A DNA stretch of 18,650 nt from a virus. Below, piece by piece: positions 1 to 17,156 of this stretch (its first letter is position 1; the number at the start of each line of letters is the position of its first letter). Position numbers and translations under genes: made by a program. Location: UHGV virus genome UHGV-0185506, one strand, 5' to 3'. The notes beneath the pieces were generated by a model. The model was not told the origin of the DNA, searched no databases, and was given only the letters and a program-made list of their open reading frames with translations.

Positions 1-2
1 CT

Positions 3-257: not shown

Positions 258-457
258 TGAAAGTGAAGGCACTGGAAGGCGACACCGTGGATTCGCTCTG
301 TTTCCGGTACTACGGCACGACGCAGGGCGTCACCGAAAAGGTGCTGGATGCCAACCCCGGACTCTGCCAGCAGGTATTTCTGGACGCCGGGCAGGAAGTG
401 GAGATGCCAGAGCCGGAGAAGAAGAAACGAGAAATGATTCAGTTGTGGGGGGAGTAG
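257..457 (+). CDS. X: Tail protein X (P2 gpX-like, LysM-type)
   Basis: Translation MKVKALEGDTVDSLCFRYYGTTQGVTEKVLDANPGL closely matches the remembered P2 gpX N-terminus. ATG at 257 overlaps the upstream stop. Confidence 0.8.
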   Translation: MKVKALEGDTVDSLCFRYYGTTQGVTEKVLDANPGLCQQVFLDAGQEVEMPEPEKKKREMIQLWGE

Positions 458-459
458 CA

Positions 460-783
460 GTGAGCACCATTCAAACAGGGATCACAGAGCAGGTTATTGC
501 GTGGCTCTTTGACCACCTGCCAACGGTGTATGCAGTAGGCGCGGCGGTCAGCATTTCCGCGCTGATGAGTCTTTATGACGGACGAACACTGGTTCAGACC
601 GTAACGGGATCGCTGGCGTGCGGCGTTCTTGCCATGGCCGTGGCCGGGTCGTTGCGCTTCTTCGGGTTTCCTGAAGATGCCGTGACGTTTATCGGCGCAT
701 CAATCGGTTTTATGGGTGCAGAGAAAGCACGCGACAAGGTTATTGCGGCCTTTAATCGCAGGGTGAAGGAGAAGGACGAATGA
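460..783 (+). CDS. Putative holin (not P2 gpY-like)
   Basis: GTG at 460 follows the X stop, with a G-rich SD (GGGGGGAG) upstream. Small protein with hydrophobic stretches and a charged C-terminus (RRVKEKDE). Sits directly upstream of the endolysin. The track ORF 241-783 is an upstream extension of the same frame. Confidence 0.55.
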   Translation: MSTIQTGITEQVIAWLFDHLPTVYAVGAAVSISALMSLYDGRTLVQTVTGSLACGVLAMAVAGSLRFFGFPEDAVTFIGASIGFMGAEKARDKVIAAFNRRVKEKDE

Positions 784-1172
784 GCAACACATTTAAATTC
801 AGCAGCCGGAGCGAAAAGAATTTGCAGGGCGTAAATCCTGATCTGGTGAAAGTAACCCGACGGGCACTGGAAATTTCGGAAGTGGATTTTGGTATCACCG
901 AAGGATTGCGCAGCCGTTACCGCCAGAAGCAACTTGTGGCCACAGGTAAGAGCCAGACCATGAACAGCCGCCACCTTACGGGACATGCCGTGGATGTTGT
1001 GGCTTATATCGGCAGCCAGGTGTCATGGGAATGGCCGCTGTACGAAAAAATCGCAGCAGCATTCAAACAGGCCAGCCGGGAACTGAATATTCCGGTGGAA
1101 TGGGGCGGCGACTGGAAGACCCTGAAAGACGGACCGCATTTTCAGTTACCACACGGAGCCTATCCGGCATGA
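780..1172 (+). CDS. Endolysin, peptidase M15 (VanY-like) type
   Basis: 130 aa with an HLTGHAVDV motif typical of zinc M15 peptidases. Occupies the lysis-cassette position between holin and spanins. Start overlaps the holin stop. Confidence 0.75.
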   Translation: MSNTFKFSSRSEKNLQGVNPDLVKVTRRALEISEVDFGITEGLRSRYRQKQLVATGKSQTMNSRHLTGHAVDVVAYIGSQVSWEWPLYEKIAAAFKQASRELNIPVEWGGDWKTLKDGPHFQLPHGAYPA

Positions 1173-1576
1173 AGCTCTGGCCCACGCTGGGTGTCGCTTT
1201 CCTTCTGATTGCCGCATGGGGAACATCCATGCGTCTGTCATGGTCGCTTGGCCGGGAGAACGCCAGAAACGAAGCGCAGGCCAGCGCCCTGAAAAGTACC
1301 GTCGACACCCTGAATATCATCAGCACCGGGGTACAGGATATGCAGCAGGTGCTGGCGCAACTCCGCGTGGAAAATCAACAGCGAAATCAGGACGGAGAGG
1401 CCAGACGTGAACAGCTACGCAACGATATTGCAAAAGATGAATGCGCCCACGCTTTGCCTGACGCTCGTTTTACTGACAGGCTGCGCAGGCACGCAGAACG
1501 CGCCACGGCCAGCGCCGTCAGTCCGGCTTATACCGCAGACGCTGACCATACCGGTAATGCCTCCCCCCTTCCCTGA
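1169..1576 (+). CDS. lysB: Spanin inner-membrane subunit (LysB / Rz-like)
   Basis: ATG at 1169 overlaps the endolysin stop. N-terminal TM segment (MKLWPTLGVAFLLIAAWG) followed by a Q/R/E-rich, coiled-coil-like periplasmic part. The track ORF 1025-1576 is an upstream extension of the same frame. Confidence 0.7.
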   Translation: MKLWPTLGVAFLLIAAWGTSMRLSWSLGRENARNEAQASALKSTVDTLNIISTGVQDMQQVLAQLRVENQQRNQDGEARREQLRNDIAKDECAHALPDARFTDRLRRHAERATASAVSPAYTADADHTGNASPLP

Positions 1577-1727
1577 CACTCCCACATGGGGAAATCTCGG
1601 TATATGGGGCGACCGCCTTCTGGATGCACTGGAAACCTGTAACGCGGATAAACGGGCCATTGAATTACTGGAACAGCGCAGGCTGCAACGACTGAACAAC
1701 GAGGACAACAACCATGCTGAAAACTGA
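1407..1727 (+). CDS. lysC: Spanin outer-membrane lipoprotein (LysC / Rz1-like), overlapping the lysB 3' end in another frame
   Basis: Lipobox LLTGC after a hydrophobic leader, then a proline-rich mature region. Classic Rz/Rz1 overlap. The true start may be the ATG at 1437 rather than 1407. Confidence 0.6.
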   Translation: MNSYATILQKMNAPTLCLTLVLLTGCAGTQNAPRPAPSVRLIPQTLTIPVMPPPFPDTPTWGNLGIWGDRLLDALETCNADKRAIELLEQRRLQRLNNEDNNHAEN

Positions 1728-2181
1728 TTCCCTGCGTGAAGCCATGACCCGTTCATGCCGATGGTGTCAGGCCAACCCGGAAAAATTCACCATTTTCGTG
1801 GAGAGCGGCAACATTGAAACGACCGGAGAAACTCCCTCGTTTGTTTACCGCTATCAGATGGTGATGTTTGTCATGGATTACGCCGGGGAGCTGGACGACC
1901 TCACGCTGCCGCTGCTGGCGTGGTTATCCGAAAATCAGCCGCAGTTGTTGCTCAATCCGGAGCGTAATCAGGACATCAAATTCTCCGCCGTTATCAATGA
2001 CGATGACAGCGCCGATCTCCTGTTTACGCTCCCCCTGCGGGAACGCGTTCGCATCACGCGCAGCAGTCAGGGCGCGCCGCAGGCAGAACACCTGCCGGAG
2101 CCAAAACCCCGCCTACCCTCTTCCGAAGGCGACTGGTCGCATGTATTCCAGGATGTGACGTGGGGTGAAAGCGATGGATAA
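1714..2181 (+). CDS. R: Tail completion protein R (P2 gpR-like)
   Basis: MLKTDSLREAMT...PLLAWLSENQP resembles the remembered P2 gpR. Position and length (155 aa) fit. Confidence 0.8.
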   Translation: MLKTDSLREAMTRSCRWCQANPEKFTIFVESGNIETTGETPSFVYRYQMVMFVMDYAGELDDLTLPLLAWLSENQPQLLLNPERNQDIKFSAVINDDDSADLLFTLPLRERVRITRSSQGAPQAEHLPEPKPRLPSSEGDWSHVFQDVTWGESDG

Positions 2182-2809
2182 GGCATTCACCCGCGTGGAT
2201 GAAACCTTTGAGGCCATCCGCGACAGCCTGAATCAGCAGGCCATCAATAACATCGCCAGAAAGCTGGCACAGGATTTACGCCGCGCCCAGCAGGCGCGTA
2301 TCCGGTCACAGAAAGCGCCGGACGGGACCGCGTGGACACCACGCAGACGCCGCGTAACCCGGATACAGGAGCGCATTCGCTTTATCTGGAATAACGAAGC
2401 ACGCACGCTGAAAAACTGGCATCACGACACGGGGAAATACGGGCGAACCATTACCGGGTGGGATGAGGATAAAAACAATATCCGCACGTTTTACCGGGAT
2501 GACATCGACCGTTTTCTGGAAATACGCACCCGGCGCATCAACCAGGACAGCACAAAGCGCGTCCCCATGTTCGTAAAACTGCGCACCGCCCGCTACCTGA
2601 AAGCCCGTGCAGATGCTTCCGGTGTGACGGTGGGTTACAGCGGCGTGGCCGCACGTATTGCCCGCGTTCATCAGTTCGGTGGGCGCGATCAGGTTGCGCC
2701 GGGCATTTTCACCGATTACCCGGTACGTGAGCTGCTGGGTATCAGCCAGGCAGATGAGCGCCTGATTTATAACACGGTGCTGGGCCGGATTGCGGAGGCT
2801 GTACGGTGA
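2174..2809 (+). CDS. S: Tail completion / virion morphogenesis protein S (P2 gpS-like)
   Basis: ATG at 2174 overlaps the R stop. Segment LAQDLRRAQQARIRSQKAPDGTAWTP is typical of the phage tail S family. Position fits. The track start at 2165 is a GTG three codons upstream. Confidence 0.7.
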   Translation: MDKAFTRVDETFEAIRDSLNQQAINNIARKLAQDLRRAQQARIRSQKAPDGTAWTPRRRRVTRIQERIRFIWNNEARTLKNWHHDTGKYGRTITGWDEDKNNIRTFYRDDIDRFLEIRTRRINQDSTKRVPMFVKLRTARYLKARADASGVTVGYSGVAARIARVHQFGGRDQVAPGIFTDYPVRELLGISQADERLIYNTVLGRIAEAVR

Positions 2810-3387
2810 GCGCAGAACTCATGCGGCTGCTGAGCAACATCATCCGCACCGGGATCATCTCTGAAGTTGATGAGGAATCCTGGCGCGTGCGCGTTCGCAG
2901 CGGCGAACTGGAAACAGGCTGGTTGCGCTGGAACACCACGCGCGCGGGAGCCTTCAATGTGTGGCTGCCGCCATCACCAGGCGAACAGGTGGTAATTGCC
3001 TGCATTGGCGGCAACCCGGAAACCGCCATGATAATTGGCAGCCTGTGGAGTGATGCCAGTCCGGCCCCCGGCAAAAGCCTGAAAGAAATCGTGGTCAGCG
3101 CGCCGGACGGCGCGGTGTTCCGCTACGACGCAGACGCTGGCGCACTGAGCGCCAGCGGCATGAAAACAGCCACCCTGCAGGCATCCGTCAGCGTGACACT
3201 GGATACGCCCGTCGTGGAATGCACAAACCTTCTGAGAACAGCGACGCTTGACGTCACAAAAGGGGGAAAGATGAGCGGCAATATCACGCACAGCGGCGGC
3301 GATTTCACCTCAAACGGCATCACAGTGCATACGCATAAGCACGGTGGCGTTAAAGGTGGCAGCGATTCGACAGGAGGCCCGCAGTGA
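2806..3387 (+). CDS. V: Baseplate spike / assembly protein V (P2 gpV-like)
   Basis: GTG start overlaps the S stop (GTGA). IRTGIISEVD...GWLRW and the C-terminal HTHKHGG...GGP motif match the remembered gpV. Confidence 0.85.
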   Translation: MSAELMRLLSNIIRTGIISEVDEESWRVRVRSGELETGWLRWNTTRAGAFNVWLPPSPGEQVVIACIGGNPETAMIIGSLWSDASPAPGKSLKEIVVSAPDGAVFRYDADAGALSASGMKTATLQASVSVTLDTPVVECTNLLRTATLDVTKGGKMSGNITHSGGDFTSNGITVHTHKHGGVKGGSDSTGGPQ

Positions 3388-3734
3388 CAACCCGCTACAC
3401 AGGAATGAACCCGGACGGAACGGGAAACCTGAACGATATGGAGCACCTGAAACAGTCAGTCAGGGACATCCTGACCACCCCGCTGGCCAGCCGGGTTATG
3501 CGACGGGAATATGGCAGCCTTGTGCCTGATTTGATTGACGAACCCATGAATAACACCACGCGTCTGCAATGCATGAGTGCTGCCGTGATTGCGCTGACAC
3601 GATGGGAACCCCGCATTGCCCTGGATGCCATCGACGTTGTCTGGAAAGCGGGAGGCCGCGCCGGGGTGACGCTGTCGGGCACTGTCATGCAGACCATGCA
3701 GAATGTTGAGTTAACCATCACGCTGAGGGAGTAA
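3384..3734 (+). CDS. W: Baseplate protein W (gp25-like)
   Basis: 116 aa, start overlaps the V stop. Position and size match P2 gpW. Confidence 0.8.
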   Translation: MTTRYTGMNPDGTGNLNDMEHLKQSVRDILTTPLASRVMRREYGSLVPDLIDEPMNNTTRLQCMSAAVIALTRWEPRIALDAIDVVWKAGGRAGVTLSGTVMQTMQNVELTITLRE

Positions 3735-3737
3735 ATC

Positions 3738-4634
3738 ATGCCCGCCGTTGACCTTTCCCAGTTACCGGAACCCGCCATCATCGCGGAGCCTGACTTTGAA
3801 GCAATTCTGGCTGACACAAAAGCCATGATGATTGCGTCCTATCCCGCCGAACAGCGTGAAGCCGTTTCCGCCGCGCTGGAGCTGGAATCGGAACCCCTGA
3901 ACGTTATCGCTCAAACCATGTCGTTTCGTGAAATGCTGTTACGCCAGCGGGTCAATGAGGGTGCACGCGCCTGCATGTTAAGCCACAGCGCCGGGACAGA
4001 CCTGGACAACCTCGCGGGCAATATGAACACAAAGCGCCTGGTTATCACTCCGGCAACGGATACCACCGACGCGGTGATGGAGAGCGACACCTCGCTGAGA
4101 CTGCGGGCGCAGCGGGCGTACGACGGCCTGAGTGTTGCTGGCCCGTCAGGTGCATACGAGTATTTTGCCCGCAGCGCCAGCGGTCTGGTGCGCGATGCGC
4201 GGGCTATCAGTCCGTCTCCGGCCTGTGTGACGGTTTCCATCCTGTCCACTGAAGGCGACGGCACAGCAACGGAGGCGTTGCTTAATACCGTTCGCGCCGT
4301 TCTGAATGCAGAGGATACCCGCCCGGTGGCCGACCGCCTGACCGTACAGAGCGCCAGAATCGTGACATGGCGGCTGAATGCAAAACTGTACTTTTACCCC
4401 GGCCCGGAATCCGAACCTATTCTGGCCGCGGCTGAATCGTCGTTCAGGAAGTGGCTGGCTGAGCAGGGGCTTATCGGTCAGGACGTGGCGTTGTCCGCCA
4501 TTGCTGCCGCACTGCATGTGCACGGTGTGCAACGCGTGGAGATAATCGAACCCACACAGAATATGGCCATCAGCGACATACAGGCGGCGCGCTGTGAGTC
4601 ATTCACCATCAGCGAAGGTGGGCGTAATGAGTAA
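3738..4634 (+). CDS. J: Baseplate protein J (P2 gpJ-like)
   Basis: 298 aa. SD GAGGGAG upstream of the ATG. Synteny W-J-I-H. Confidence 0.85.
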   Translation: MPAVDLSQLPEPAIIAEPDFEAILADTKAMMIASYPAEQREAVSAALELESEPLNVIAQTMSFREMLLRQRVNEGARACMLSHSAGTDLDNLAGNMNTKRLVITPATDTTDAVMESDTSLRLRAQRAYDGLSVAGPSGAYEYFARSASGLVRDARAISPSPACVTVSILSTEGDGTATEALLNTVRAVLNAEDTRPVADRLTVQSARIVTWRLNAKLYFYPGPESEPILAAAESSFRKWLAEQGLIGQDVALSAIAAALHVHGVQRVEIIEPTQNMAISDIQAARCESFTISEGGRNE

Positions 4635-5157
4635 TTCACTGTTACCGCCATCAGCCAGCAATTTCATGCGTTGTGCCGAAGCCGTCGGGACACGCATTAC
4701 AGACATTCCGGTAGACCTCAACACGCTGTGGTCGCCGGACACCTGCCCGGTACATCTGCTGCCTTATCTCGCCTGGGCGTTTTCCGTTGACCGCTGGGAT
4801 CGCAACTGGCCGGAAGAGACAAAGCGACAGGTGATTCGTGATGCATGGCTGATACACCGACACAAAGGAACCATCAGCGCCCTGCGACGAGCCATTGAAC
4901 CGCTGGGATACCTCATTCGCGTGTCTGAGTGGTGGGAGTTCGACGGAGAACCGGGAACATTTACCGTTGAAGTCGGCACGCTGGACAGCGGTGTGACGGA
5001 GGAAATGTATCTGGAAATGGAGCGGTTGATTGCTGATGCCCGCCCGGTCAGCCGCCACATGACAGGGCTGAATATCATTCAGGAGATCCAGGGGGATATT
5101 TTCGCGGCGGCGGCAACTTACGACGGTGAAGTTATTACCATTTATCCGGACGATTAA
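4627..5157 (+). CDS. I: Baseplate/tail protein I (P2 gpI-like)
   Basis: ATG at 4627 overlaps the J 3' end. 176 aa, the P2 gpI length as I recall it. The track start at 4594 is an upstream extension. Confidence 0.8.
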
Positions 5158-5159
5158 GC

Positions 5160-6815
5160 ATGAGTACCACAACACGAAAATTTAAAACCATTATCACTGA
5201 TACTGGTGCCCAAAAATTAGCTCAGGCCGCCGCGCCAGATGGTAAGCCTGTCCGCCTGACTCACATGGCCGTGGGCGACGGTGGCGGCACGTTGCCCACA
5301 CCAGACAGTAAGCAGACCTGTCTGGTGCATGAGGTGTGGCGACATACCGTTAATCGCGTCATCCTGGACGCAACACATCAGAACCGCATTATTGCGGAGC
5401 TGGTTATTCCTCCTGAAACGGGCGGATTCTGGGTCCGGGAAATTGGTGTGTTTGATGAGCACGGTGATTTAATTGCGGTGGGCAATACTGCCGAAAGTTA
5501 CAAGCCAACCGTTGCCGAAGGGTCCGGACGTGCGCAAACATTTCGTACCATCTTGACCGTATCCAGCACTGCCACCGTGGAGCTTACCGTGGATAACACC
5601 ATGGTTATGGCCACAGTGGATTACGTGGATGACAAACTGAAAGAGCATGAACAGTCACGACGTCACCCGGACGCCTCGTTGACCGCAAAAGGTTTTACTC
5701 AGTTAAGCAGCGCGACCAACAGTGAATCTGAAACGCTGGCTGCAACTCCGAAAGCGGTTAAGGCAGCGTATGACCTTGCTAACAGAAAATACACCGCTCA
5801 GGACGCCAGCACGGGGCGAAAAGGTCTTGTCCAGTTAAGCAGCGCCACTAACAGTGATTCGGAAACGCTTGCTGCGACTCCGAAAGCAGTGAAAGCAGCG
5901 AATGACAATGCAAACAAGCGAGTACCTAAAGGAGCGGGATTAAATGAGTACGCCGAAAATATAAGTGATATTGCTACTGATTTACGTACGCGTGGTGGCT
6001 TTTTTAATGCTCCCTCAGCAAAGAATGGAATGCCTGGAGGACACACCTGGAAGCACTACATCAACTCTGCACACAGCAATACTCAGGGATACAATACTGT
6101 TATTGGCATTGATTTTAATGGAGATGTAATCGGTTTTGCGGCAGTTTGCGCAGGTGTTTTTAAGGGGTGGAAGTTGATTCATCATGACGGGTATAGCAAC
6201 TTCCCGGTAGGCGCTGCGATCCCGTGGCCTTCTGATTCAGTACCAACAGGCTATGCAATTATGCAGGGGCAGACTTTTGATAAAGCAGCCTATCCCTTGC
6301 TCGCAGCAGCTTATCCGTCAGGGGTGATTCCAGATATGCGCGGCTGGATAATCAAGGGCAAGCCCGCCAGCGGGCGTGCTGTATTGTCACAGGAACAGGA
6401 CGGGATTAAATCGCATACTCACAGTGCCAGTGCGTCAAATACGGATTTAGGAACGAAAACGACCAGTTCATTTGATTACGGCACGAAGACAGTCAGTACG
6501 TTTAACCACGGAACAAAAACCACTAATACAACTGGTAACCATACACATACCATTTACAGAGGGAATGCCAATACTAATGGTGAAACCGGAAAAACAGGTT
6601 TTGACAACCCATCGTTTAATGGCACATCAGGAGCTGCCGGGAATCATGCCCACACGGTAGATATCGGCTCACATAATCATACGGTTGGTATTGGTGCCCA
6701 TACGCACACAGTGGCATTAGGTGCGCACGGGCACACCATCACGGTAAATGCTACGGGTAATTCAGAGAACACCGTAAAAAACATTGCATATAACTATATT
6801 GTGAGGCTCGCATGA
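5160..6815 (+). CDS. H: Tail fibre protein H: conserved P2-type N-terminus, mosaic C-terminus with HxH (gp37-like) repeats
   Basis: N-terminus [23 protein letters not shown]... and duplicated [22 protein letters not shown] motifs are hallmarks of P2-type fibres. C-terminus [36 protein letters not shown]...NYIVRLA matches the HxH-repeat ends of Stf/gp37-type fibres. Confidence 0.9.
5696..5898 (+). repeat. Imperfect tandem direct repeat of about 75-80 bp inside H, encoding the duplicated QLSSATNS(E/D)[14 protein letters not shown] motif
   Basis: Two near-identical DNA blocks starting near 5696 and 5819 (…cagttaagcagcgc…gaaacgct…gctgc…actccgaaagc…). Confidence 0.8.
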
Positions 6816-7678
6816 TTAAGTTAATTCTTTCAGAGCCAGTCCATGAAATGGCAGATGCGTTTAAACGCGTTTTTGGCAATACCGACAATGTGGACGTTGT
6901 AGAAAAACCATTTGAAGCAATCTCAGAATTTGACTGCATGGTAAGTGCGGCAAACAGTTTCGGGCTAATGGATGGCGGCGTGGATGCTGCCATTACCGCA
7001 TTTTTTGGTACTCAACTACAGACGCGTGTTCAGAATCATATTATTCGTGAATATCTTGGTGAACAGCCCGTAGGGTCTGCTTTTGTTATTGAAACGGGGC
7101 ATAATCATCACCCCTGGCTGGTACATGCGCCAACAATGCGTGTTCCGCTGACAATTGACGGAACAGACGCTGTATATAACGCCACGTGGGCCGCTCTGCT
7201 TGCCATCTTTCAGCACAATAAAAATGCAACGACAGACAGGAAAATAAAAACGGTGGTATTACCTGCAATGGGGGCCGGATGTGGTCAGGTGCCGTTTGAA
7301 AGTGTTGCCCGGCAGATGAAGCTGGCATGGGATAACTTTAATAAAACAGAATCAATTAACTGGGAATACGCATATTCCCGCCAGTGGGCGGTATTTAACA
7401 CATGTGCATACTGCCCCGGTAAATCTGGTTGTCGTTATGCTGATATTAAATATATTGGATGTGGTGATTACCGTACGTATTGCTTACGGTCAGGGCAGGT
7501 ATGTATTAACCCTGAACATCAGGTTGATGACGTGCTGACTAATAATCGCTCTCGCCCGGGGGCACATATACACCAGATTAATCCGGTAAAACCCGTAGGT
7601 AACGTTACCATTGGCGCACACAGCCACGGAAGGAATATCACCATTGGTGCTCATTCCCATACAACCAATAAACAATAA
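6812..7678 (+). CDS. Macro-domain (ADP-ribose binding/hydrolase fold) protein with a Cys-rich, HxH-repeat fibre-tip-like C-terminus
   Basis: ATG overlaps the H stop (ATGA), with SD GAGG upstream. Macro signature: [19 protein letters not shown] (compare NAAN..L..GGGV..AI), LVHAPTM (compare H-VGP), [14 protein letters not shown] (compare FPAISTGIYGYP). C-terminus carries CxxC...C...C and GAHIH/GAHSHG/GAHSHT repeats like the H tip. Confidence 0.6.
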
Positions 7679-7708
7679 TTCTGTCTCTGACATTAAGTAG
7701 AGGTGAAC

Positions 7709-8287
7709 ATGACTTTCAGAATGAGTGCTGAAGCACAAACCATTCGCGTATTTAATTATCTCGATGGTACAAATGAATTTATTGGTGAAAGCGATATGTA
7801 CATTCCACCACATACAGGCTTACCCGCAAACTGTACAGATATTGCACCTCCAGATATTCCGGCTGGCTATGCTGCCGTTTTCAATGCAGACGAAATGAAA
7901 TGGCATCTGATGGAAGACCATCGCGGAAAGACTGTATACGAAACGAAAACAGGAGCAGCAATTTATATTTCTGAGCTTGGAGCATTACCTCCTGACGTAA
8001 CAACAATTTCTCCGACTGGCAATTATCAGAAATGGAATGGTAATGTGTGGGTGGATGATGAAAATGCAGAGCATGATGCGCTTGTCAGAGCAGCTGAGTC
8101 TCAGAAAAAAGAACTACTCAGAAATGCAAGTGAAATAATCACTATCTTGCAGGATGCCGTTGATTTAAGCATTGCGACAAAGGAAGAAATAATGTTACTA
8201 AATGAGTGGAAGATGTATCGTATATTATTGAACAGGATTGATACATCAATGACACTAAATATCCAGTGGCCAACCTCCCCACAGTAA
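7709..8287 (+). CDS. Tail fibre assembly protein (gpG / Tfa family)
   Basis: Position directly after the fibre gene. C-terminal region (…[26 protein letters not shown]) matches the conserved tail-fibre-assembly C-terminal domain. SD GAGGTG before the ATG at 7709; the track start at 7703 is a GTG two codons upstream. Confidence 0.75.
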
Positions 8288-8294
8288 AAAAAAT

Positions 8295-8313
8295 AGCAGG
8301 CGATTCGCCTGCT
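8295..8313. terminator. Bidirectional intrinsic terminator between the convergent assembly and glycosyltransferase genes
   Basis: Hairpin agcaggcg-att-cgcctgct, flanked by an A8 run on the plus strand (a T8 run on the minus strand, directly after the minus-strand gene) and by ttaatt downstream. Confidence 0.7.
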
Positions 8314-8317
8314 TTAA

Positions 8318-9052
8318 TTAATTGCGGCTGGATAGTTTAAATTGTTTAATTTTTGCTTTTATGGTGTTTTTCAGCGAGTACGACGGCACCCATTTTAAAG
8401 CAACCTGCCAAGGACGAGGCGAGCCATGAAAACATACTATTCTGGCGTTTTCAGGCACTGACCCATTGGCCAAACCATCATGTAGTTCAGCATTGAAACC
8501 AATCATTTTAGGTGTGGCAATATTTGCTTTATAACTCACAATAAATCCGGGAAGAACATCCTGCCAACGTTCTGCGTCAGGATATATTTCACTGATAAAT
8601 CCCTGATCACCGTGATAAGGAGGTAATTTATTCCTGGACATTATCTGTTCAGCATTATCCTTGAAAGCATTCCAAGCACGGTATTTTTCCTTTGCTGGAA
8701 TAAACATAATACCAGAAGCAGCGGGAGCATTTTCTTTACCGACGCATGAGAAATCGGTAAGCATTGTCATATTCTGCAAATTGGTGAATTCATGTAGATC
8801 GCCCGTAATAACGGTATCGATATCTATATAAAGTATATCTTCCTTTCCAATAACAGGGTGTTCTGGATTGAATAATTCTATTTTCGCCCACCATCCCGGC
8901 CAATTATAAAGAAGCGGCGCAGTTTCTACTCCCTCAATGTAAACTGCGTCTGTTAAACATACTGAACGAATACCCCTGATTTGCTGGTGTAGCCATTGGG
9001 CATGCTTGGGGGTGAAATCTTTGCTACAACGAAGGACTGAAACAACCAGCAC
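8318..9052 (-). CDS. Putative GT-A fold glycosyltransferase, GT8-like (DxD motif); cargo (moron) gene
   Basis: GTG start at 9052 with SD AGGAG 6 nt upstream. WAKIEL...KEDILYIDIDTVITGDL parallels the remembered LgtC segment ARLKL...DKVLYLDIDVLVRDSL. ASGIMFIPAKEKYRAW parallels NAGVLLINLKKWRR. C-terminal FHGSPRPW resembles the GT8 HxxGxxKPW motif. AT-rich relative to the core phage genes. Confidence 0.5.
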   Translation of the reverse strand: MLVVSVLRCSKDFTPKHAQWLHQQIRGIRSVCLTDAVYIEGVETAPLLYNWPGWWAKIELFNPEHPVIGKEDILYIDIDTVITGDLHEFTNLQNMTMLTDFSCVGKENAPAASGIMFIPAKEKYRAWNAFKDNAEQIMSRNKLPPYHGDQGFISEIYPDAERWQDVLPGFIVSYKANIATPKMIGFNAELHDGLANGSVPENARIVCFHGSPRPWQVALKWVPSYSLKNTIKAKIKQFKLSSRN

Positions 9053-9080
9053 TACTTACTCCTAAATACACAACTGTAGA

Positions 9081-9108
9081 TATATAACTCGCGTTTATGA
9101 TATCACAA
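9081..9108 (-). promoter_or_regulatory. Candidate sigma70 promoter for the glycosyltransferase gene
   Basis: Minus-strand reading gives TTGTGA (-35; plus 9103-9108), a 16-nt spacer, then TATATA (-10; plus 9081-9086), about 25 nt upstream of the SD, in an AT-rich spacer. Confidence 0.35.
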
Positions 9109-9334
9109 ACAAAAGCATAAAACTTACCCACATAAGTAGAGTCATATAGTCTCTGCCAATATAATGAGTGACTATTTCACTAAGCTTTCATCGAAACAAT
9201 AGACCTAGAGTTAAGCTATTAATCACTCTAACAAGGTAGAGATATTGATTTTGCTATACCGACGTTTTGTCAGTACTTCCCCAGCAAGACACAACATGAA
9301 GTCGGCACAGTTTTTGAAGTTATTTAAGGAACAG

Positions 9335-9366
9335 AAAAACCGCTAATCTGATCATTAGCGGTTTTT
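9335..9366. terminator. Bidirectional intrinsic terminator 9 nt downstream of the U stop
   Basis: aaaaa-CCGCTAAT-ctgatc-ATTAGCGG-ttttt: 8-bp perfect stem with A-run and T-run on either side. Confidence 0.8.
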
Positions 9367-9374
9367 GCGTTAAA

Positions 9375-9869
9375 TCAGAACACCCCTTTAACTGAACTGG
9401 CTGCGCTGTTAAGGGATGACGTCACCTTATCTTTGAAGCCGGACAGCATATCACTGAACGATGAGGATTGCAGGCGCTCCCGCAAATCCTCATCACAGCG
9501 TTCAAGAGTCAGTGAAAATTCTATCTTTTTCGCCTTACCGTAGCGATCAAACTCGGAACGGGTCGTATTCGTTTCAGTCAGTACATACATGCCGTAAATC
9601 TGCCCAACACCATCAATCAGAGGCCAGGGGCGTCCTGTATATGCCTGCGTGGTCAGCAACGAAAGCGACACTTCGCCACCTGTAATTTCAGGATAAAGCA
9701 CGCCGGAAAGCACGATGCGATCATCACCTGCGCCGATATACTGCCAGCTTGCTGAACGGTTAACGCGTTCATTTTTCACATGCCGCCAGCTTTTGTTTTG
9801 CTGTAACAGCTGATGCGGCAATGTGCGCAGCTCAAAAACAAACATGCCGTAGATCATCATCATGGCCAT
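9375..9869 (-). CDS. U: Tail protein U (P2 gpU-like)
   Basis: …FVFELRTLPHQLLQQNKSWRHVKNERV…YPEITGG…WPLIDGVGQIYGMYVL matches the remembered gpU. Follows T on the same strand. Confidence 0.85.
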   Translation of the reverse strand: MAMMMIYGMFVFELRTLPHQLLQQNKSWRHVKNERVNRSASWQYIGAGDDRIVLSGVLYPEITGGEVSLSLLTTQAYTGRPWPLIDGVGQIYGMYVLTETNTTRSEFDRYGKAKKIEFSLTLERCDEDLRERLQSSSFSDMLSGFKDKVTSSLNSAASSVKGVF

Positions 9870-9875
9870 GACTCC

Positions 9876-12719
9876 TCAATCTTTATCGTAAAAACTGCCA
9901 CGTCCGGCACGGTCGCGTCGTTCCAATTCTGCCCTGACCATTTCACCGACCAGTTTCGCCAGTTCGCGGGGATTCTGCGTAACAACGTTATGCAGATGAA
10001 CATGAATTTCACCGCCAAATCCGGAGACAACAGGCTCCCGGTTACGGGAAGTTGCAGGAACTGATGCCACTGGCGATCGTATGGCCTCCGCCACCGGGCG
10101 GGAGCTGGCCGCAACAACAGGGACCAGCGCCGGAGGCAGAGGAGTCTGGACCACGGGTGTGATGTTGATTGCGGAAGCAGGCTTACTGACCTGCGCAATC
10201 TTCCGCTCCTGCCACTCCCCACGAACAGCAAGTGCGCGGGGCAGGTTCTTAAAGACAATATCGCCGGGGCCAATGCGTTTTTTCGTCTCATCAACCAGCT
10301 TACCTGTGTTATCAGCAATTTTGCTGAGTCTGCGTAGCGTACCGGTATTGCTGTCTGTGAGCGGTTTGTTGTCTTTGGGTTTATCACCTCCGGTGCCATT
10401 GCCATTTTCCACAAGCTTCGGCGGATTGATTTTCGCCAGGTCCCCCTGAAGCAAGGCAACCTTGTCCTGAAGAATGGCCGCACGCTGTGCGTCTTCGATT
10501 TTCTTGCGCGCCCTTTCCGCTTCATCCGGAAGCACACCGAGCTTTTCAAGTATCCACGCCAGCGTATCCAGCAACATTTTTGCAGGTGTCAGAACAAGTT
10601 GTAACGCACCACCAAGAACGTTACCGAATATCTCGCCAGCACTGGTACATTTATCCAGCGTTTCCTTGCTGGACTCCATCGGTGACAGCAGCGATTTAAA
10701 CCAGTTAAACACCTGGCTTATCCCGCTTCCGATTGCGTCAAAAACAGGACCAAACCGTTCAAAGGTTTCGCGCAACGGGGTCAGCCTTTCCATAATCCCG
10801 CTGAACACCCCGGCAAAAAATGCCCTGATGGGATCCCAGTATTTCCAGATAAGAACGGCAGCTCCGGCAAGCGCAGCCACGATAAGACCAACCGGACTGA
10901 ACAGCGCCCCGATAGCGCCTCCCAGCAAAGAAACGGAACCCGTCACCATTCCCCATAGTGCTGGCAGGAGCCTGACAGCATTCATTGATCTGGTCAGGAG
11001 GGAAAAACCAAGACGCAGTTTTGCCAGTGGACCAGCAAGCACACCAAGAGCAAGCGACAACGAGCCTACGGTTGCAGTCACTGCCAGCAGCGCACCGCCT
11101 GCAATCAGTAGCTGGCGCGTCAGTACAGGATGGGCCTGCGCCAGTGCCGTCACCTTTGAGACCACCCGCGTTAGCCACTGCGTGACAGAACGCAGCGAAC
11201 CGTCAACCAGATCACTGATGCGAATACGAAGACCTTCCCATGCGCTGTCGAGATTTTTCAGGTCGCCATCAAGGTTGTCGGCCATAACCTTTGCTGTGCG
11301 TTCAGCCTCACCGCGTGCGCCCTCAAGTTCTTTTCTCAGTTTGGGTAAGGAACCGTCACCCGCCGCATCAACGAGCGCCATAAACGATGTGAAAGCCTCT
11401 TCCCCGGCGATGTCCTTAAAGAAGGATACCCGGTCAACTTCCCCGTATTTGCGGGTAGCTTTATAAAGGTCAGCCAGCAGATCTTCCATCGGGCGCATTT
11501 TGCCCCCGGCATCCGAGACGGACACGCCCAGCTCTTTCAGAGCTTCTGCCGCCGCCTTTGGCGGTGATGCCAGACGAGCCAGGCTGGCACGCATTGCCGT
11601 CCCGGCATCACTCCCCCTGATGCCCATATTCGCCAGCACGCCCGCCATAGCTGCGGCCTGCTCCAGCGATATTCCCAGCTTACCCGCCACCGGACCTGCA
11701 TATTTCATGGTTTCGCCCAGTGCGCGAAGGTCAGTGTTGGTACGGGTAAACGCTGCGGTGAGTGTGTCACCGACCCGGTCCATCTGGTCAGCAGAAAGGC
11801 CGAACTGCGTCAGGATATTTGAGCCAATATCCGCCGTCTCGCCGAGATCCATACCGCCAGCCGTTGCCATGCTCAGCACGCCGGGAAGCGCAGCCTGAAT
11901 GGCCTGCGGAGTGAAGCCAGCCATTGCAAGAAATGCCTGTCCACTGGCGGCATCGCCTGCGGTGAACTGCGTTTCAGAGCCAAGTTTTAACGCCTGCTCA
12001 CGCAGCGCCTTAAACTGCGGGCTGTTTTTGTCGATTCGCGTCAGTGCCTGAACGCGGGACATCTCTTTCCCGAACCCGATCGCGGGCTGTAAAAAACGCC
12101 CGGCAGCATAGCCGCCCGCCGCTGCCGCACCAATTGCCAGCGCACCACCTGTTTTCAGTTTTCCCGCTGTTTCCTGCGCGCGCGAATACCGCTCACGCGC
12201 CTGCGTTACACGTGCAAGCGCCTGCCGTTCGCGTTCAAGCTGGTTGTTGTATTGTTCGGTGCGTCTGATGGCCTGCTGGATGGTGTTATCACTGCCTGTC
12301 AGGGAAATGCCGTGGCGTTTCAGCTCTCCGCCAAGCTCCCGCATTTTCTGAATTTCCCGTGCGCGCGATTCATTCAGGCGTTCAAGCCGGGTGCTTAACT
12401 GCTGCATCAGCTTTTGTTGTTTTTCGCTGAGCACTGCCCCCGTGCGTTGTAACTGATTAAGGGCGTTAAGTTGGCGTCGTGCTTTCACGATGCCAGCATC
12501 CGCTTTACTGACAGCGTCGCGGGCGCGCTCAAATGATCGCGCCTGACGCTCGAGATTTTTGATCGCCCCCTGCGTTCGCTGGATGGAGTCACCAAACTGC
12601 CCCATCAGGCGGCGTGCGTTTTCGGCAGGTCGGGTCAGCCTGTCAACGGCGCTGAAAGCGACCCGGATATCAAGAGTCTTCATCGTCTGCATTCCCACTG
12701 CGAAGTGCCGCCCGCTCAC
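9876..12719 (-). CDS. T: Tail tape measure protein T
   Basis: 947 aa, Ala/Gln/Arg-rich and coiled-coil-like, with internal hydrophobic segments. Position after E/E' and before U. Confidence 0.9.
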   Translation of the reverse strand: MSGRHFAVGMQTMKTLDIRVAFSAVDRLTRPAENARRLMGQFGDSIQRTQGAIKNLERQARSFERARDAVSKADAGIVKARRQLNALNQLQRTGAVLSEKQQKLMQQLSTRLERLNESRAREIQKMRELGGELKRHGISLTGSDNTIQQAIRRTEQYNNQLERERQALARVTQARERYSRAQETAGKLKTGGALAIGAAAAGGYAAGRFLQPAIGFGKEMSRVQALTRIDKNSPQFKALREQALKLGSETQFTAGDAASGQAFLAMAGFTPQAIQAALPGVLSMATAGGMDLGETADIGSNILTQFGLSADQMDRVGDTLTAAFTRTNTDLRALGETMKYAGPVAGKLGISLEQAAAMAGVLANMGIRGSDAGTAMRASLARLASPPKAAAEALKELGVSVSDAGGKMRPMEDLLADLYKATRKYGEVDRVSFFKDIAGEEAFTSFMALVDAAGDGSLPKLRKELEGARGEAERTAKVMADNLDGDLKNLDSAWEGLRIRISDLVDGSLRSVTQWLTRVVSKVTALAQAHPVLTRQLLIAGGALLAVTATVGSLSLALGVLAGPLAKLRLGFSLLTRSMNAVRLLPALWGMVTGSVSLLGGAIGALFSPVGLIVAALAGAAVLIWKYWDPIRAFFAGVFSGIMERLTPLRETFERFGPVFDAIGSGISQVFNWFKSLLSPMESSKETLDKCTSAGEIFGNVLGGALQLVLTPAKMLLDTLAWILEKLGVLPDEAERARKKIEDAQRAAILQDKVALLQGDLAKINPPKLVENGNGTGGDKPKDNKPLTDSNTGTLRRLSKIADNTGKLVDETKKRIGPGDIVFKNLPRALAVRGEWQERKIAQVSKPASAINITPVVQTPLPPALVPVVAASSRPVAEAIRSPVASVPATSRNREPVVSGFGGEIHVHLHNVVTQNPRELAKLVGEMVRAELERRDRAGRGSFYDKD

Positions 12720-12888
12720 GCCAGCTAACCACTTCGCCGGGCGTCATCATGAAGATTTCGGCGGGCGACCAGTTAAAAATAACGGCAATATCTGCCACAA
12801 AGTCTTCTATGTGCTCAAAGCACACAACCGTGATCAGGCTTCCGTCGCCTGTTCGTTCTTCCCGCCAGAGTCCGCACCGCTCAAAAAA
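12670..12888 (-). CDS. E': E' extension: -1 frame segment fused to E by programmed frameshift to give E+E', overlapping the T start
   Basis: The -1 frame is open from 12918 to 12670 and bridges the E stop to the T start. Slippery heptamer T TTT TTG on the minus strand at 12888-12882, read as N-F-L in frame 0 and as F-F-E after slippage. Confidence 0.7.
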   Translation of the reverse strand, partial: FFERCGLWREERTGDGSLITVVCFEHIEDFVADIAVIFNWSPAEIFMMTPGEVVSWRERAALRSGNADDEDS

Positions 12889-13202
12889 TTTACGGCAACC
12901 ACACATAACTGAATAAAGTCACGGGATGCCATTTTTTTGATCGTCACTTCATCCAGTCGCGGTGATGTCACGCGCGACAACAGCGTAAACATGGATTCCG
13001 CTTTCAGATTCAGCACATCAGACAGCGACAGACCACGCAGGGATCCAGCCTGCTCAATAGCCCCGGTGATCTCCACATACGTGATTTTTTCGTCGCCTCG
13101 CTCAATTGGTTGGGTAAGTTTTACGCCGCGCTCGCTGGTTTCTTTCGCAGTATCAGCAACCACCACAGCGTTTTCAGTATCGGTATTTTTCGTCTCTTTC
13201 AT
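12834..13202 (-). CDS. E: Tail assembly chaperone E (P2 gpE-like)
   Basis: 122 aa, acidic, between the tube gene and T. Contains the T TTT TTG slip site near its 3' end. Confidence 0.8.
   Translation of the reverse strand: MKETKNTDTENAVVVADTAKETSERGVKLTQPIERGDEKITYVEITGAIEQAGSLRGLSLSDVLNLKAESMFTLLSRVTSPRLDEVTIKKMASRDFIQLCVVAVNFLSGADSGGKNEQATEA
12882..12888 (-). other. Programmed -1 ribosomal frameshift slippery heptamer T TTT TTG
   Basis: Plus strand caaaaaa at 12882-12888 gives minus-strand TTTTTTG in the X XXY YYZ register of the E frame. Confidence 0.7.
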
Positions 13203-13256
13203 CAGAAAACTCCTTTCAGTCAGAGGCGACGCACTGCGCCGCCTGCATATTACTTA

Positions 13257-13769
13257 TCAGCCAAGCCCAAGCGCGGAACGGATGCGATCGGGCACAATGT
13301 CCTTGCCGTCCTTCCGGTAAATAAAGTTCAGCAGGTCAATCTCCCACAACGGGCGATCGTTAACACTCAGCTTGTAGTAGGTGTTTTTAATGGCGTAAGT
13401 GTGTGATGTGGCTTCGCCCTGTTTGGCTTCCCCCATATCAATTTCCGTCACACGTCCGCGCATTTCGACTTCATACAGGTCGCTTTCTGCATCGGTGTAG
13501 TATTCACCCGCAAAACGCAGCAGCGTGCCGTCAATCGTGCCACCATACTTAAGGAACAGCTCACGAACTGCGCCCCCCATGACAAAGCTCGCATCAAGCG
13601 CGGAGTCGTCCAGACCGAGATCAATACTTACCGCACCCATCATGCCGCCCCCCCGGTAGCTGTCGGTTTTGCGCGTCAGCTTAGGCAGAGTGACGGACGT
13701 CACCTTACCCACTTCGTTTTCACCATCCACAAACAGCGTAAAAAAGCGAAGATGTTTTGGCACAGCCAT
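13257..13769 (-). CDS. FII: Tail tube protein FII
   Basis: MAVPKHLRF…VTLPKLTRKTDSYRGGGM…LGLDD matches the remembered P2 FII. Start overlaps the FI stop (TGATG). Confidence 0.9.
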   Translation of the reverse strand: MAVPKHLRFFTLFVDGENEVGKVTSVTLPKLTRKTDSYRGGGMMGAVSIDLGLDDSALDASFVMGGAVRELFLKYGGTIDGTLLRFAGEYYTDAESDLYEVEMRGRVTEIDMGEAKQGEATSHTYAIKNTYYKLSVNDRPLWEIDLLNFIYRKDGKDIVPDRIRSALGLG

Positions 13770-14953: not shown

Positions 14954-15034
14954 AGCTTCAGCCCCTTGTATCCGTTAAATGATTCGGCAACAATCATCAC
15001 CCACCACGCGCGTAATCTCACCCCTGCGCCGTTC

Positions 15035-15051
15035 TTGTCGCCCGGCGACAA
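15035..15051. promoter_or_regulatory. Perfect 17-bp palindrome TTGTCGCCCGGCGACAA in the divergent FI/D intergenic region; candidate activator site
   Basis: Seen directly in the sequence. Centred about 90 nt upstream of the FI ATG and about 68 nt upstream of the D ATG. The function is inferred, not shown. Confidence 0.3.
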
Positions 15052-17150: not shown

Positions 17151-17156
17151 ATCAGA

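Follow-up and report, generated by a model that had tools for sequence, protein, structure and literature searches.

The question raised by this locus is how a strongly AT-rich stretch came to lie among the GC-rich tail genes of a prophage, and what was carried in with it. The window, that is, the whole 18,650-nucleotide stretch analysed, belongs to a P2-family prophage of the P88-like (Xuanwuvirus) type, which lies beside ihfA/pheT in an Escherichia host. The preliminary description had placed an AT-rich island at 5900-9374 and ascribed it to one or more horizontally transferred cassettes. The results indicated that the island is very probably the hypervariable tail-fibre and cargo hotspot of the prophage, a nested mosaic drawn from a shared low-GC gene pool. 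The GC content was 0.4305 within 5900-9374 compared to 0.571 at 1-5899 and 0.537 at 9375-18650, confirming the island. The sliding-window profile fell from 0.55-0.62 at 1-5600 to 0.37-0.50 over 5800-9400 and returned to 0.50-0.60 past 9400. A two-breakpoint maximum-likelihood fit of the prophage part placed the low-GC segment at 5900..9590 (GC 0.433 inside, 0.557 outside), with a gain of 90 nats of log-likelihood over no island; composition leaves the right edge poorly defined, since U, although a conserved core gene, has a GC of only 0.495. The drop had been described as sharp; the drop itself was recovered but not as a single step, since GC declines block by block (H C-terminus 0.47, macro ORF 0.456, G 0.407, cargo gene 0.412, intergenic 9053-9374 0.35). 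The dip is family-wide, with 0.44-0.50 in the slot against 0.54-0.58 in the cores of P88, P24A7b, SEN5 and the O157 prophage, where cargo genes have 0.34-0.36. An AT-rich island is ordinary for P2-family phages. The features are summarized in Table 1.

Table 1. Features of the island and its borders (positions in the window)
Feature	Position	Strand	Basis or remark
Tail fibre gene H, 551 aa	5160..6815	+	Pfam Phage_tail_fib 6.6e-54, Phage_fiber_2 1.2e-41, Collar 3.3e-10
Fibre repeat, two 98-nt copies	5687-5784, 5819-5916	+	Repeat search; 83% identical
Linker segment of H, aa 253-347	5916..6200	+	Private; blastn comparison with relatives
Exchangeable fibre-tip cassette, lambda Stf / T4 gp37 type	6201..6815	+	Collar domain and HxH 'needle'
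Macro-domain ORF, 288 aa	6812..7678	+	Pfam Macro 4.3e-18
Macro core, cellular-type, aa 1-194	6812-7393	+	Cellular homologues 50-55% identical, ending at residue ~194
Phage-only tail of macro ORF, aa 195-288	7394-7675	+	Four invariant Cys and three GAHxH motifs
Tail fibre assembly chaperone G, P2 G / lambda Tfa type, 192 aa	7709..8287	+	Pfam Caudo_TAP 1.3e-38, PHROG 105
GC-rich hairpin between A-run and T-run	8295..8313		Terminator scan, sequence
Cargo gene, 244-aa predicted GT-A / GT8-like glycosyltransferase, PmgQ/HdmD family	8318..9052	-	PHROG 1962
Upstream region of cargo gene, ~35% GC	9053..9250	-	Presumed regulatory region
Probable decayed 3' remnant of DNA invertase gene	9231..9334	+	DNA match to 500465-2
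Bidirectional terminator, 13-bp stem, downstream of U	9335..9366		Terminator scan, inverted repeat, alignment with P88 and 500465-2
Tail gene U, first conserved core gene right of the island	9375..9869	-	Pfam Phage_P2_GpU 4.7e-38

The limits of the island were also analysed by alignment with P2-family relatives. Outside it, identity to P88 and Chuche is 96-97%. The blastn match to P88 covers 1-5915 at 96.5% and resumes at 9330; the left end point is 5915 in Chuche and the O157 prophage as well, and on the right the match resumes at 9251 in phage 500465-2 and at 9368 in the O157 prophage. These breakpoints (5915/5916 inside H; 9251-9368 on the right) agree with the composition, and the edges first proposed for the accessory module lie within 16 bases of them on the left and 6-123 bases on the right. 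The left breakpoint in P88, Chuche and the O157 prophage is the exact end of the second 98-nt repeat copy. H residues 1-252, the conserved baseplate-proximal part, lie in the GC-rich core and the remainder lies inside the island. On the right, U is 94-96% identical to that of P88, 500465-2 and the O157 prophage, and the terminator downstream of it is kept in P88-like phages as the right anchor of the island. As the FI-U block is inverted in the P88-like lineage, the slot lies between the conserved H N-terminal part and U, whereas in P2 the downstream neighbour is FI.

By its place, the island corresponds to a known tail-fibre hotspot of P2-family phages, which in P2 is named the H-G / Z-fun region or "moron position 2". 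At moron position 2, after G, an oppositely oriented gene that is AT-rich and unameliorated was described (PMC3573123), and the Z/fun hotspot was described as mixed-purpose, with fibre/chaperone swaps, cargo and often invertases (10.1101/2024.10.15.618418). The site studied here likewise follows directly after the assembly gene G, as do the P2 Z/fun slot and neaT of the CFT073 prophage phi-b0847. As in those hotspots (PMC3573123; 10.1101/2024.10.15.618418), it holds one gene transcribed opposite to the tail genes, which is strongly AT-rich, deviates in codon usage from both phage and host and varies among close relatives. The cargo differs, being a GT8-like glycosyltransferase by its predicted structure instead of an acyltransferase or a Z/fun gene.

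Comparison of the island with its relatives resolved it, at the sequence level, into at least five blocks with different closest relatives, so that more than one cassette is indicated. These are the linker, the fibre tip, the macro block (6817-7708), the Tfa gene and the cargo unit between two terminators. The linker is 100% identical in two metagenome copies, which are identical to the window, and gave no blastn match in P88, Chuche or any other relative fetched; it is the sole part of the island private to this prophage. Tip homology starts at 6201-6222 in Chuche, the O157 prophage, a P1-like plasmid, P24A7b, Gifsy-1 and SEN5. P24A7b (tip 88.7% and G 82.5% identical) has tip and G directly adjacent without the macro ORF, SEN5 has tip-macro-Tfa with an empty cargo slot, and in the lambdoid Gifsy-1 a pagK-like gene on the reverse strand comes after Stf-macro-Tfa. 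The cargo slot holds a serine O-acetyltransferase in O157 prophages, and an LPS GlcNAc-transferase with an acetyltransferase in the P1-like plasmid. The stretch 7100-7800 is 97-100% identical to this plasmid and its flanks 50-89%. The hairpin at 8295-8313 serves as a bidirectional terminator where G and the cargo gene converge; it forms the left edge of the cargo block, and homology to Chuche and the O157 prophage changes at 8287-8297. The low-GC pool would be common to unrelated enterobacterial phages, namely lambda, Gifsy-1, P1-like phage-plasmids and other P2-like phages. Exchange may proceed by recombination at short conserved anchors: on the left the repeated fibre motif ending at 5916 and the start of the collar/tip cassette at ~6201-6222, and further along the H-stop / Tfa-start junction and the two bidirectional terminators.

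The four genes named in the preliminary description were identified as expected, as the fibre gene H, a Macro domain, a Caudo_TAP assembly protein and, by AlphaFold/Foldseek, a GT8-like glycosyltransferase. H is a P2-type fibre, and in P88-like coliphages no gene varies more than that of the tail fibre, which determines host range (PMC5285337). Its tip carries six HxH motifs in the needle, and the identity profile placed the hypervariable portion at 6501-6700. At the DNA level, 6201-6815 and G share ~76% identity with lambda stf/tfa, and the C-terminal HxH repeats are of the iron-coordinating kind found in the T4 gp37 tip (PMC11705849). Residues 348-551 probably form an HxH metal-stapled trimeric receptor-binding tip, which the Tfa chaperone G, preceded by a ribosome-binding site GAGGTGA, would fold. 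As with lambda Stf/Tfa and T4 gp37/gp38, the Caudo_TAP chaperone gene lies downstream of the fibre; unlike in those systems, the N-terminus that bears the tip is that of a P2-type H, and an inserted macro ORF separates the fibre gene from the chaperone gene.

The macro ORF is the one notable feature of the island, owing to its unusual fibre-like tail. By its sequence, the protein joins a macro enzyme of the cellular type to a phage-only tail with fibre-needle GAHxH motifs. The H stop codon and the ATG of the ORF overlap (ATGA), a translational coupling to the fibre gene that was found in 11/11 loci, and against P24A7b the ORF is a precise gene-sized indel at 6817-7708. Gifsy-1 STM2588.1n and the 'macro domain-containing protein' of SEN4/SEN5 belong to the same family (core 75-77% identical) and likewise separate the fibre gene from Tfa. 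They have shorter tails with one or two HxH motifs, and their backbones are a lambdoid siphovirus (Gifsy-1) and Senquatrovirus (SEN4/SEN5). It is possible, though doubtful, that the ORF is instead the main adaptive content of the island, a counter-defence ADP-ribosyl hydrolase not associated with the fibre, which would reverse host ADP-ribosylation of DNA/RNA by DarT-like or CmdT-like systems. The T4 macrodomain protein AdfM is such an anti-DarTG2 factor, and the macro core, which is close to cellular enzymes, is complete and strongly conserved, with an invariant N48, GGVD motif (55-58) and GAGCG loop (154-158). Further, P2 hotspots are known to house defence and counter-defence genes (10.1101/2024.10.15.618418), and the ORF is dispensable for a fibre, as P24A7b and lambda are without it. 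The DarG models, however, scored well short of their thresholds (13 bits in NCBIfam, where the cutoff is 250; E=0.009 in PADLOC), a place in the late structural operon implies that the enzyme would come late against an early-acting defence, and the fibre-type tail recombines together with the chaperone N-terminus. The island had been credited with receptor-facing and cargo functions; owing to the late fibre operon, the coupling to H and the HxH tail, the macro ORF is unlikely to be free-standing cargo. In the mosaic reading, it would be an optional insertion in the late operon of H and G.

Among the closest known relatives is the isolated P88-like phage Chuche (PP925824), a free phage, whereas the window is an integrated prophage. 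With a backbone ~96-97% identical, Chuche matches 6201-9374 at 95-97%, including the tip, macro ORF, Tfa, glycosyltransferase, AT-rich upstream region and U terminator; its reverse-strand glycosyltransferase is 99.2% identical at the protein level. This colinearity, together with the two clean junctions at the outer limits, would suit the arrival of all of 5916-9374 as a single cassette in one event. That is unlikely, as Chuche is without 5916-6200 (its H of 609 aa has another segment there, with more fibre repeats), the macro ORF is a precise indel and the cargo slot varies apart from tip-macro-Tfa, being GT8-like, acetyltransferase, GlcNAc-transferase, pagK-like, empty or an invertase module. 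The block-by-block GC steps and a discontinuous identity profile within the macro-G stretch also oppose it. Since the same composite is already present in Chuche, its assembly predates this prophage, and most of the island was inherited here as a unit and not freshly assembled. The content of the island is therefore not new in kind.

Codon usage was compared between the island and the core tail genes. GC3 was 0.34-0.47 in the island (H 0.47, macro 0.40, G 0.34, cargo gene 0.35) against 0.55-0.69 in the core (J 0.67, I 0.60, U 0.545, T 0.58), and within H it falls at codon ~250 (position 5910). Synonymous codon usage differed strongly (chi2=257, df 41, p=4e-33), with A/T-ending codons preferred by the island for 17 of 18 amino acids, so both the composition and the codon usage deviate from the flanking genes. 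The GC loss sits mainly at synonymous third codon sites. For comparison, GC3 is 0.50 in ihfA and 0.54 in pheT, the host genes contained in the window; compared with the host as well, the island is thus AT-rich, and the phage core GC-rich. An origin in place, with the low GC due to fibre amino-acid constraint or selection for AT-rich DNA, is very improbable: Asn, Thr, Ser and Gly are abundant in fibre tips, GC1 is somewhat below that of core genes in H, G and the cargo gene, and U is itself fairly low in GC, but GC2 of H (0.495) is no lower than in core genes, the ~96% identity to sister phages is lost exactly at the composition boundaries and the nearest relatives of the blocks lie in unrelated phage types, so that the GC3 and breakpoint results largely refute it.

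In P88 and 500465-2, the slot between H and U is an invertible double-fibre segment with a DNA invertase, arranged as H C-terminus, TAP, inverted TAP, inverted fibre tip and invertase. The Mu G segment and P1 C segment are invertible tail-fibre segments of this kind, with a Hin/Gin/Cin-family invertase. The blastn match to 500465-2 reaches 9251, within its invertase gene, and the remnant of ~100 nt scored z=4.6 in a global DNA alignment, a score reached by 0 of 2000 shuffles, with no significance at the protein level. This suggests that an invertible tip-chaperone module with a Hin/Gin-type invertase was replaced here. As in those phages, the slot lies between the constant fibre part and U and its purpose is a change of receptor-binding tip and chaperone. 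The window contains no invertase gene, second inverted tip/chaperone pair or convincing crossover repeats; unlike in the invertible-segment phages, the host range is fixed and not switchable.

The cargo protein is below the detection limit of the Glyco_transf_8 model and gave no Pfam or NCBIfam match. Its AlphaFold model (pLDDT 94.8) matched LgtC, glycogenin, WbbM and GT8 in Foldseek at probability 1.0 with TM of 0.5-0.6. The profile alignment placed its DxD, GDQG and HxGxxKPW-like motifs on those of glycogenin. From this modelled fold, it is predicted to be a GT-A/GT8-like glycosyltransferase, sharing the GT-A fold, DxD, GDQG and H-x-G-x-x-(K/R)-P-W with GT8 (LgtC, glycogenin) and PmgQ/HdmD; at 244 aa it is shorter than GT8 retaining glycosyltransferases, among which WaaO/WaaR/WaaJ are LPS outer-core enzymes. 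It is 36-37% identical to P1 PmgQ (36.7%) and P7 HdmD. One homologue, at 46% identity, is part of a Klebsiella/Raoultella waa LPS-core cluster, by waaL and heptosyltransferase genes, and further copies are phage morons. The context of this one chromosomal homologue and the fold neighbours suggest that the LPS core is the probable target of the enzyme. When produced by the prophage, the enzyme would most likely add a hexose to this core, and the altered cell surface may result in lysogenic conversion and receptor masking against superinfecting phages. Promoter scans of the region upstream of the gene found no canonical sigma-70 promoter, and the block 9053-9250 is common only to Chuche and the identical metagenome copies. 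P1 PmgQ, 37% identical, was first labelled with a morphogenetic function, so the enzyme could conceivably serve some purpose besides modifying host LPS.

The base composition of the AT-rich stretch between the fibre gene H and the conserved tail gene U was computed along with its codon usage. The preliminary description had placed this island at 5900-9374 between GC-rich flanks, and the computed values are in accordance with it, as the GC content is 0.4305 for 5900-9374 compared to 0.571 on the left side and 0.537 on the right side. The sliding window gave 0.55-0.62 for the first 5.6 kb, 0.37-0.50 for 5800-9400 and 0.50-0.60 beyond, and when two breakpoints were fitted to the prophage part by likelihood, the low-GC segment came out at 5900..9590 (0.433 inside vs 0.557 outside, gain 90 nats). 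The drop is real, but it is not the single sharp one that had been described, since GC declines stepwise through 0.47, 0.456, 0.407 and 0.412 to 0.35 in the spacer 9053-9374. The third codon positions revealed the same pattern. The genes V, W, J and I have GC3 values of 0.60-0.69, and U, T, E, FII, FI and D of 0.54-0.61. For H the value is 0.47, with the fall at codon ~250 (position 5910), and it is 0.40 for the macro-domain ORF and 0.34 for the chaperone gene G. GC2 of H showed no reduction, and the composition shift is mainly synonymous; the synonymous codons of the island differed from those of the core tail genes (chi2=257, df 41, p=4e-33). The host genes ihfA and pheT at the end of the window have GC3 values of 0.50 and 0.54, and thus, measured against the host, the island is rich in AT and the phage core rich in GC.

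The limits of the island were located by alignment with relatives. Phage P88 matched 1-5915 with 96.5% identity and its alignment resumed at 9330 with 95.9%, and the isolated phage Chuche aligned over 1-5915, 6201-8287 and 8288-16984, all at ~95-97%. The alignment restarted at 9251 for phage 500465-2 and at 9368 for the O157:H7 prophage. Since the breakpoints fall at 5915 and 9251-9368, the limits proposed earlier for the accessory module are off by no more than 16 bases on the left side and by 6-123 bases on the right side, and for annotation of the prophage they are now fixed at 5916 to about 9330. The left breakpoint lies exactly where the second of two copies of a 98-nt fibre repeat ends (5687-5784 / 5819-5916); the motif of this repeat recurs in P2-type fibres and clearly lends itself to homologous recombination. 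On the right side, the breakpoints group around a bidirectional terminator with a 13-bp stem (9335-9366), common to all P88-like relatives. The P2-family tail module was recognised by Pfam and PHROG searches, and its genes are listed in the table together with the blocks of the island.

Genes of the prophage and blocks of the island (positions in the window)
Feature	Position	Strand	Content or relationship
V	2806-3387	+	
W	3384-3734	+	
J	3738-4634	+	
I	4627-5157	+	
H	5160-6815	+	
Macro-domain ORF	6812-7678	+	
G (Caudo_TAP chaperone)	7709-8287	+	
244-aa ORF (cargo gene)	8318-9052	-	
U, T, E/E', FII, FI	9375-14953	-	
D	15111-16220	+	
Block (a)	5916-6200		H residues 253-347, private to the prophage and its identical copies
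Block (b)	6201-6815		Exchangeable tip, Collar domain and six HxH motifs
Block (c)	6817-7708		Macro ORF and 30-nt spacer, precise gene-sized indel
Block (d)			G (Tfa), first ~170 nt travel with the macro tail
Block (e)	8288-9250		Cargo unit between two terminators, shared only with Chuche

The suggestion that the island was acquired as one or more horizontally transferred cassettes was supported and refined, as the comparison of sequences indicates that the island is a nested mosaic, composed of five or more blocks with separate relatives. The homology of the fibre tip begins at 6201-6222 in six carriers, namely Chuche, the O157 prophage, a P1-like phage-plasmid, Peduovirus P24A7b (tip identity 88.7%), the lambdoid Gifsy-1 and SEN5. 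Lambda stf/tfa showed ~76% DNA identity to the tip and G. The HxH motifs lie within H residues 419-525, and G matched Caudo_TAP at 1.3e-38; with these motifs, the downstream chaperone and the stf/tfa homology, tip and G form a tip-with-Tfa pair of the lambda Stf / T4 gp37 type. In the T4 gp37 tip, the HxH motifs coordinate iron (PMC11705849). The most variable part of the tip, even in comparison with Chuche, is 6501-6700, between the HxH motifs. P24A7b carries the same tip with the same chaperone gene directly adjacent, the macro ORF being absent. The segment 7100-7800, which covers the C-terminal half of the macro ORF and the first ~100 nt of G, is 97-100% identical to the P1-like plasmid p1919D3-2, compared to 50-89% for the neighbouring segments; this points to a P2-like prophage and a phage-plasmid having recently exchanged DNA, with a breakpoint inside the macro gene. 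The host-range determinants are the tip (6201-6815) and Tfa, and the predicted GT8-like glycosyltransferase gene is the proposed lysogenic-conversion cargo.

The island itself is ordinary for P2-family phages and is an instance of a well-described phenomenon. The gene order J-I-H-(macro)-G-[cargo]-U puts the slot directly after the fibre genes H and G and before the next conserved tail gene, and its flanks are 94-97% identical where the backbone is the same. Six different slot contents were found across P88, 500465-2, the O157 prophage, SEN5, Chuche and the window. The cargo gene is AT-rich (GC 0.41), codon-deviant (GC3 0.35) and opposite to the tail genes. Wiles et al. described the site after G as 'moron position 2' of P2-like phages, which in CFT073 holds neaT, AT-rich, codon-deviant and oppositely oriented (PMC3573123). 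For the Z/fun hotspot a 2024 preprint describes mixed purposes, namely swaps of fibre and chaperone genes, frequent invertases and further cargo (10.1101/2024.10.15.618418), and in P88-like coliphages the tail fibre is the most variable gene and determines host range (PMC5285337). The GC dip at the slot is family-wide, and the composite is already present in the isolated phage Chuche.

GC content of the slot, the core and the cargo in relatives
Relative	Slot	Core	Cargo	Remark
P88	0.468	0.569 / 0.547		
P24A7b	0.463	0.542	0.358	Moron region
SEN5	0.503	0.576 / 0.546		Slot empty of cargo
O157 prophage	0.443	0.578 / 0.546	0.340	
P1-like plasmid	0.381		0.337	

The order FI-FII-E/E'-T-U is inverted relative to P2, with D still on the plus strand. 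An island-linked rearrangement as the source of this inversion was rejected, as the same orientation is standard in Xuanwuvirus (P88), Gemsvirus (500465-2) and Senquatrovirus, and in Chuche and SEN5. Downstream of E, a GpE-like ORF of 51 aa and the start of the tape-measure gene overlap (12670-12906 and 12834-13202, minus strand), an arrangement that would be expected of the P2 E/E' programmed frameshift pair.

The same interval in P88 and 500465-2 differs from that of the window, as the variable H C-terminus and its chaperone are followed there by a second chaperone and a second fibre tip, both inverted, and by a DNA invertase, which makes it a switchable double-tip module. The window has a single tip, a single Tfa and no invertase gene. 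Its inverted repeats are at most 18 nt, the only strong one being the terminator, and the repeat search gave no hix/gix-like crossover sites. The inverted repeat I2 (5895-5911 / 8761-8777, 17 nt, 82% complementary) touches the left breakpoint and is within chance expectation. The DNA of 9231-9334 matched the invertase gene of 500465-2 at its 3' end with z=4.6, better than all 2000 shuffles, but tblastn with this invertase gave no significant match in 9053-9374 or in the whole window. As the signal stands out at the DNA level and the protein level gives nothing, this segment, just upstream of the shared U terminator, is kept only as a probable relic of a decayed Hin/Gin-type invertase module. 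Rfam and tRNA scans gave no RNA genes inside the island.

The function of the cargo protein was analysed by family, fold and context. The cargo unit is flanked by terminator hairpins at 8295-8313 and 9335-9366, and the promoter scans upstream of 9052 gave no sigma-70 site with >=8/12 consensus matches. The protein had no match in Pfam (E<=0.01; Glyco_transf_8 included), NCBIfam (E<=0.1) or, by sequence, the PDB, and PHROG 1962 labels it 'glycosyltransferase'. Since no Pfam or NCBIfam family recognises it, it is filed as GT8-like and not as a curated member. The AlphaFold model (pLDDT 94.8, pTM 0.92) predicted a GT-A Rossmann-like fold. The top 50 Foldseek matches in the PDB were all GT-A glycosyltransferases with E down to 4e-8, nearly all of GT8 type (LgtC, glycogenin, GlyE, 3tzt) or GT8-like (UGGT catalytic domain, WbbM, Skp1 galactosyltransferase), and LgtC, glycogenin, UGGT, WbbM, GlyE and a GT8 protein matched with a probability of 1.0 and TM of 0.5-0.6. 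The alignment of 44 family sequences revealed D76, D78, G147, D148, F207, H208, G209 and P211 as invariant, with Q149, R212, P213 and W214 conserved in >=90%. The family profile matched glycogenin at E=2.5e-4, placing DxD on DAD, GDQG on GDQG and FHGkPrPW on HFLGQTKPW. The earlier assignment of the reverse-strand gene to a glycosyltransferase is borne out by this fold and by the aligned DxD, GDQG and HxGxxKPW-type motifs, and it is concluded that the protein is a predicted GT8-like retaining glycosyltransferase.

The relatives of the cargo protein give insight into its possible target. A 46% identical homologue (positions 5001-5642 of its locus), which belongs to the same unannotated GT8-like family, lies inside a Klebsiella/Raoultella waa cluster, where its neighbours are waaL, three heptosyltransferase genes and a WaaZ-like gene. 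A P2-like prophage of E. albertii carries a 64%-identical homologue after its fibre and chaperone genes, and C. rodentium a 43%-identical one in a lambdoid late-region slot. Among the 5426 complete genomes of E. coli, only 6 contain a ~83%-identical gene; most of these copies are on plasmids, and none has the flanks seen here. The LPS core is most likely the target; we infer the substrate and the phenotype, and the predicted transferase activity on the core is read from the waa context of the homologue. P1 PmgQ and P7 HdmD are 36-37% identical to the cargo protein; P1 pmgQ (NC_005856 81449-82123) and P7 HdmD have historically been labelled 'putative morphogenetic function'. The PmgQ/HdmD-like family, which is without a Pfam or NCBIfam model, thus gains a predicted function based on fold and context.

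Other carriers of the tip-macro-Tfa arrangement hold different genes in the same place: O157 prophages, like many other E. coli, have a serine O-acetyltransferase there, and the P1-like plasmid has an LPS GlcNAc-transferase with a hexapeptide acetyltransferase; there is a pagK-like gene in Gifsy-1 and nothing in SEN5. A receptor-binding cassette is thus repeatedly paired with a convergent LPS-modifying gene (glycosyltransferase in the window, O-acetyltransferase in O157 prophages, GlcNAc-transferase with acetyltransferase on the P1-like plasmid), which suggests a tendency of phages to keep an enzyme for surface remodelling beside the receptor-binding module. This pairing of tip and LPS modifier bears on host-range engineering for phage therapy and on serotype variation.

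The macro ORF is widespread in enterobacterial prophages (1725 homologues at E <= 0.001). Residues 1-194 matched Pfam Macro (PF01661) with 65.8 bits vs a cutoff of 22, and the invariant residues N48, G55-G56-V57-D58 and G154-A-G-x-G158 fall in what we take to be the known ADP-ribose-binding (ligand-binding) loops. This core shares 50-55% identity with stand-alone proteins of 197-233 aa from Chloroflexota, Cyanobacteria, Acidobacteriota, Bacteroidota and Planctomycetota. The gene context of these cellular homologues gives no functional clue, because no neighbour gene is conserved in more than 9 of 43 loci. Residues 195-288 (7394-7675) are a phage-specific tail, which an exhaustive HMMER search of 1.8 billion proteins located in no more than 4 representative clusters; this search gave no other N-terminal domain joined to the tail, and a word-index search gave only fragments. 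The tail has four invariant cysteines and three G-A-H-x-H motifs. Among the 16 proteins of the window, GxHxH occurs only in H (5 times) and in the macro protein (3 times), and 0 of 100,000 shuffled tails reached three motifs. As the cellular matches end at residue ~194, and the tail is phage-only and aligns to the needle repeat of H (E=8e-4), the macro protein is a fusion of a cellular macro enzyme with a tail resembling the fibre needle. Along with the function of the PmgQ/HdmD-like family, this fibre-linked fusion architecture is a side result of some value. The AlphaFold model of the macro protein (pLDDT 48.7, shallow alignment of 22 sequences) was too poor for a fold search.

The needle-like tail suggests Tfa-assisted trimerisation of the macro protein and possibly an association with the fibre. 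In 11 of 11 loci, spanning P2-like, lambdoid and P1-like phages, the macro ORF lies between fibre tip and Tfa with its start abutting the fibre stop, which in the window is an ATGA overlap with the stop of H. Because of this order and coupling, and because the tail is restricted to these phages and recombines as a unit with the chaperone N-terminus, the macro ORF may be not cargo but a captured ADP-ribose-processing enzyme with a Cys-rich, HxH metal-stapled trimerisation tail, folded by Tfa and attached to or delivered by the fibre. We put this forward tentatively, as a rather improbable reading in its full form. If true, it would be the first virion- or fibre-linked macrodomain, and an ADP-ribose-type substrate would be expected at, or just after, the adsorption step.

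The main rival reading, by analogy with T4 AdfM, is that the macro ORF would be a counter-defence enzyme. Against it, in a comparison that covered the DarG models, NCBIfam antitoxin_DarG scored 13.3 bits vs a cutoff of 250, and the PADLOC DarG match was marginal (E=0.009 over 39 residues). Expression from the late operon also fits counter-defence poorly. The PADLOC defence models gave nothing for the glycosyltransferase or Tfa. An Escherichia-type tip-macro-Tfa arrangement was also seen in a 'Bacillota bacterium' MAG (JAEWTL010000041.1), with the macro core 90% and the whole ORF 83% identical; this fragment probably entered the bin as a contaminant.

The window is a gut-metagenome contig, and two other assemblies hold identical copies. 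The prophage ends near 16984, where the Chuche homology stops and ihfA and pheT adjoin, and this position is likely the attachment junction. The host flank 16900-18650 (ihfA, pheT) has a best identity of 96.5% to each of the 5426 complete E. coli genomes; as this is below the typical within-species identity, the host may be a divergent Escherichia lineage. The right end of the prophage carries an ogr/delta-type activator gene (16262-16522) and a hok/gef-like 46-aa toxin ORF (16713-16853). An Rfam STnc540 sRNA was found at 17071-17215 (39 bits, gathering score 38); it overlaps the host ihfA at the 3' end and also the region that follows downstream.
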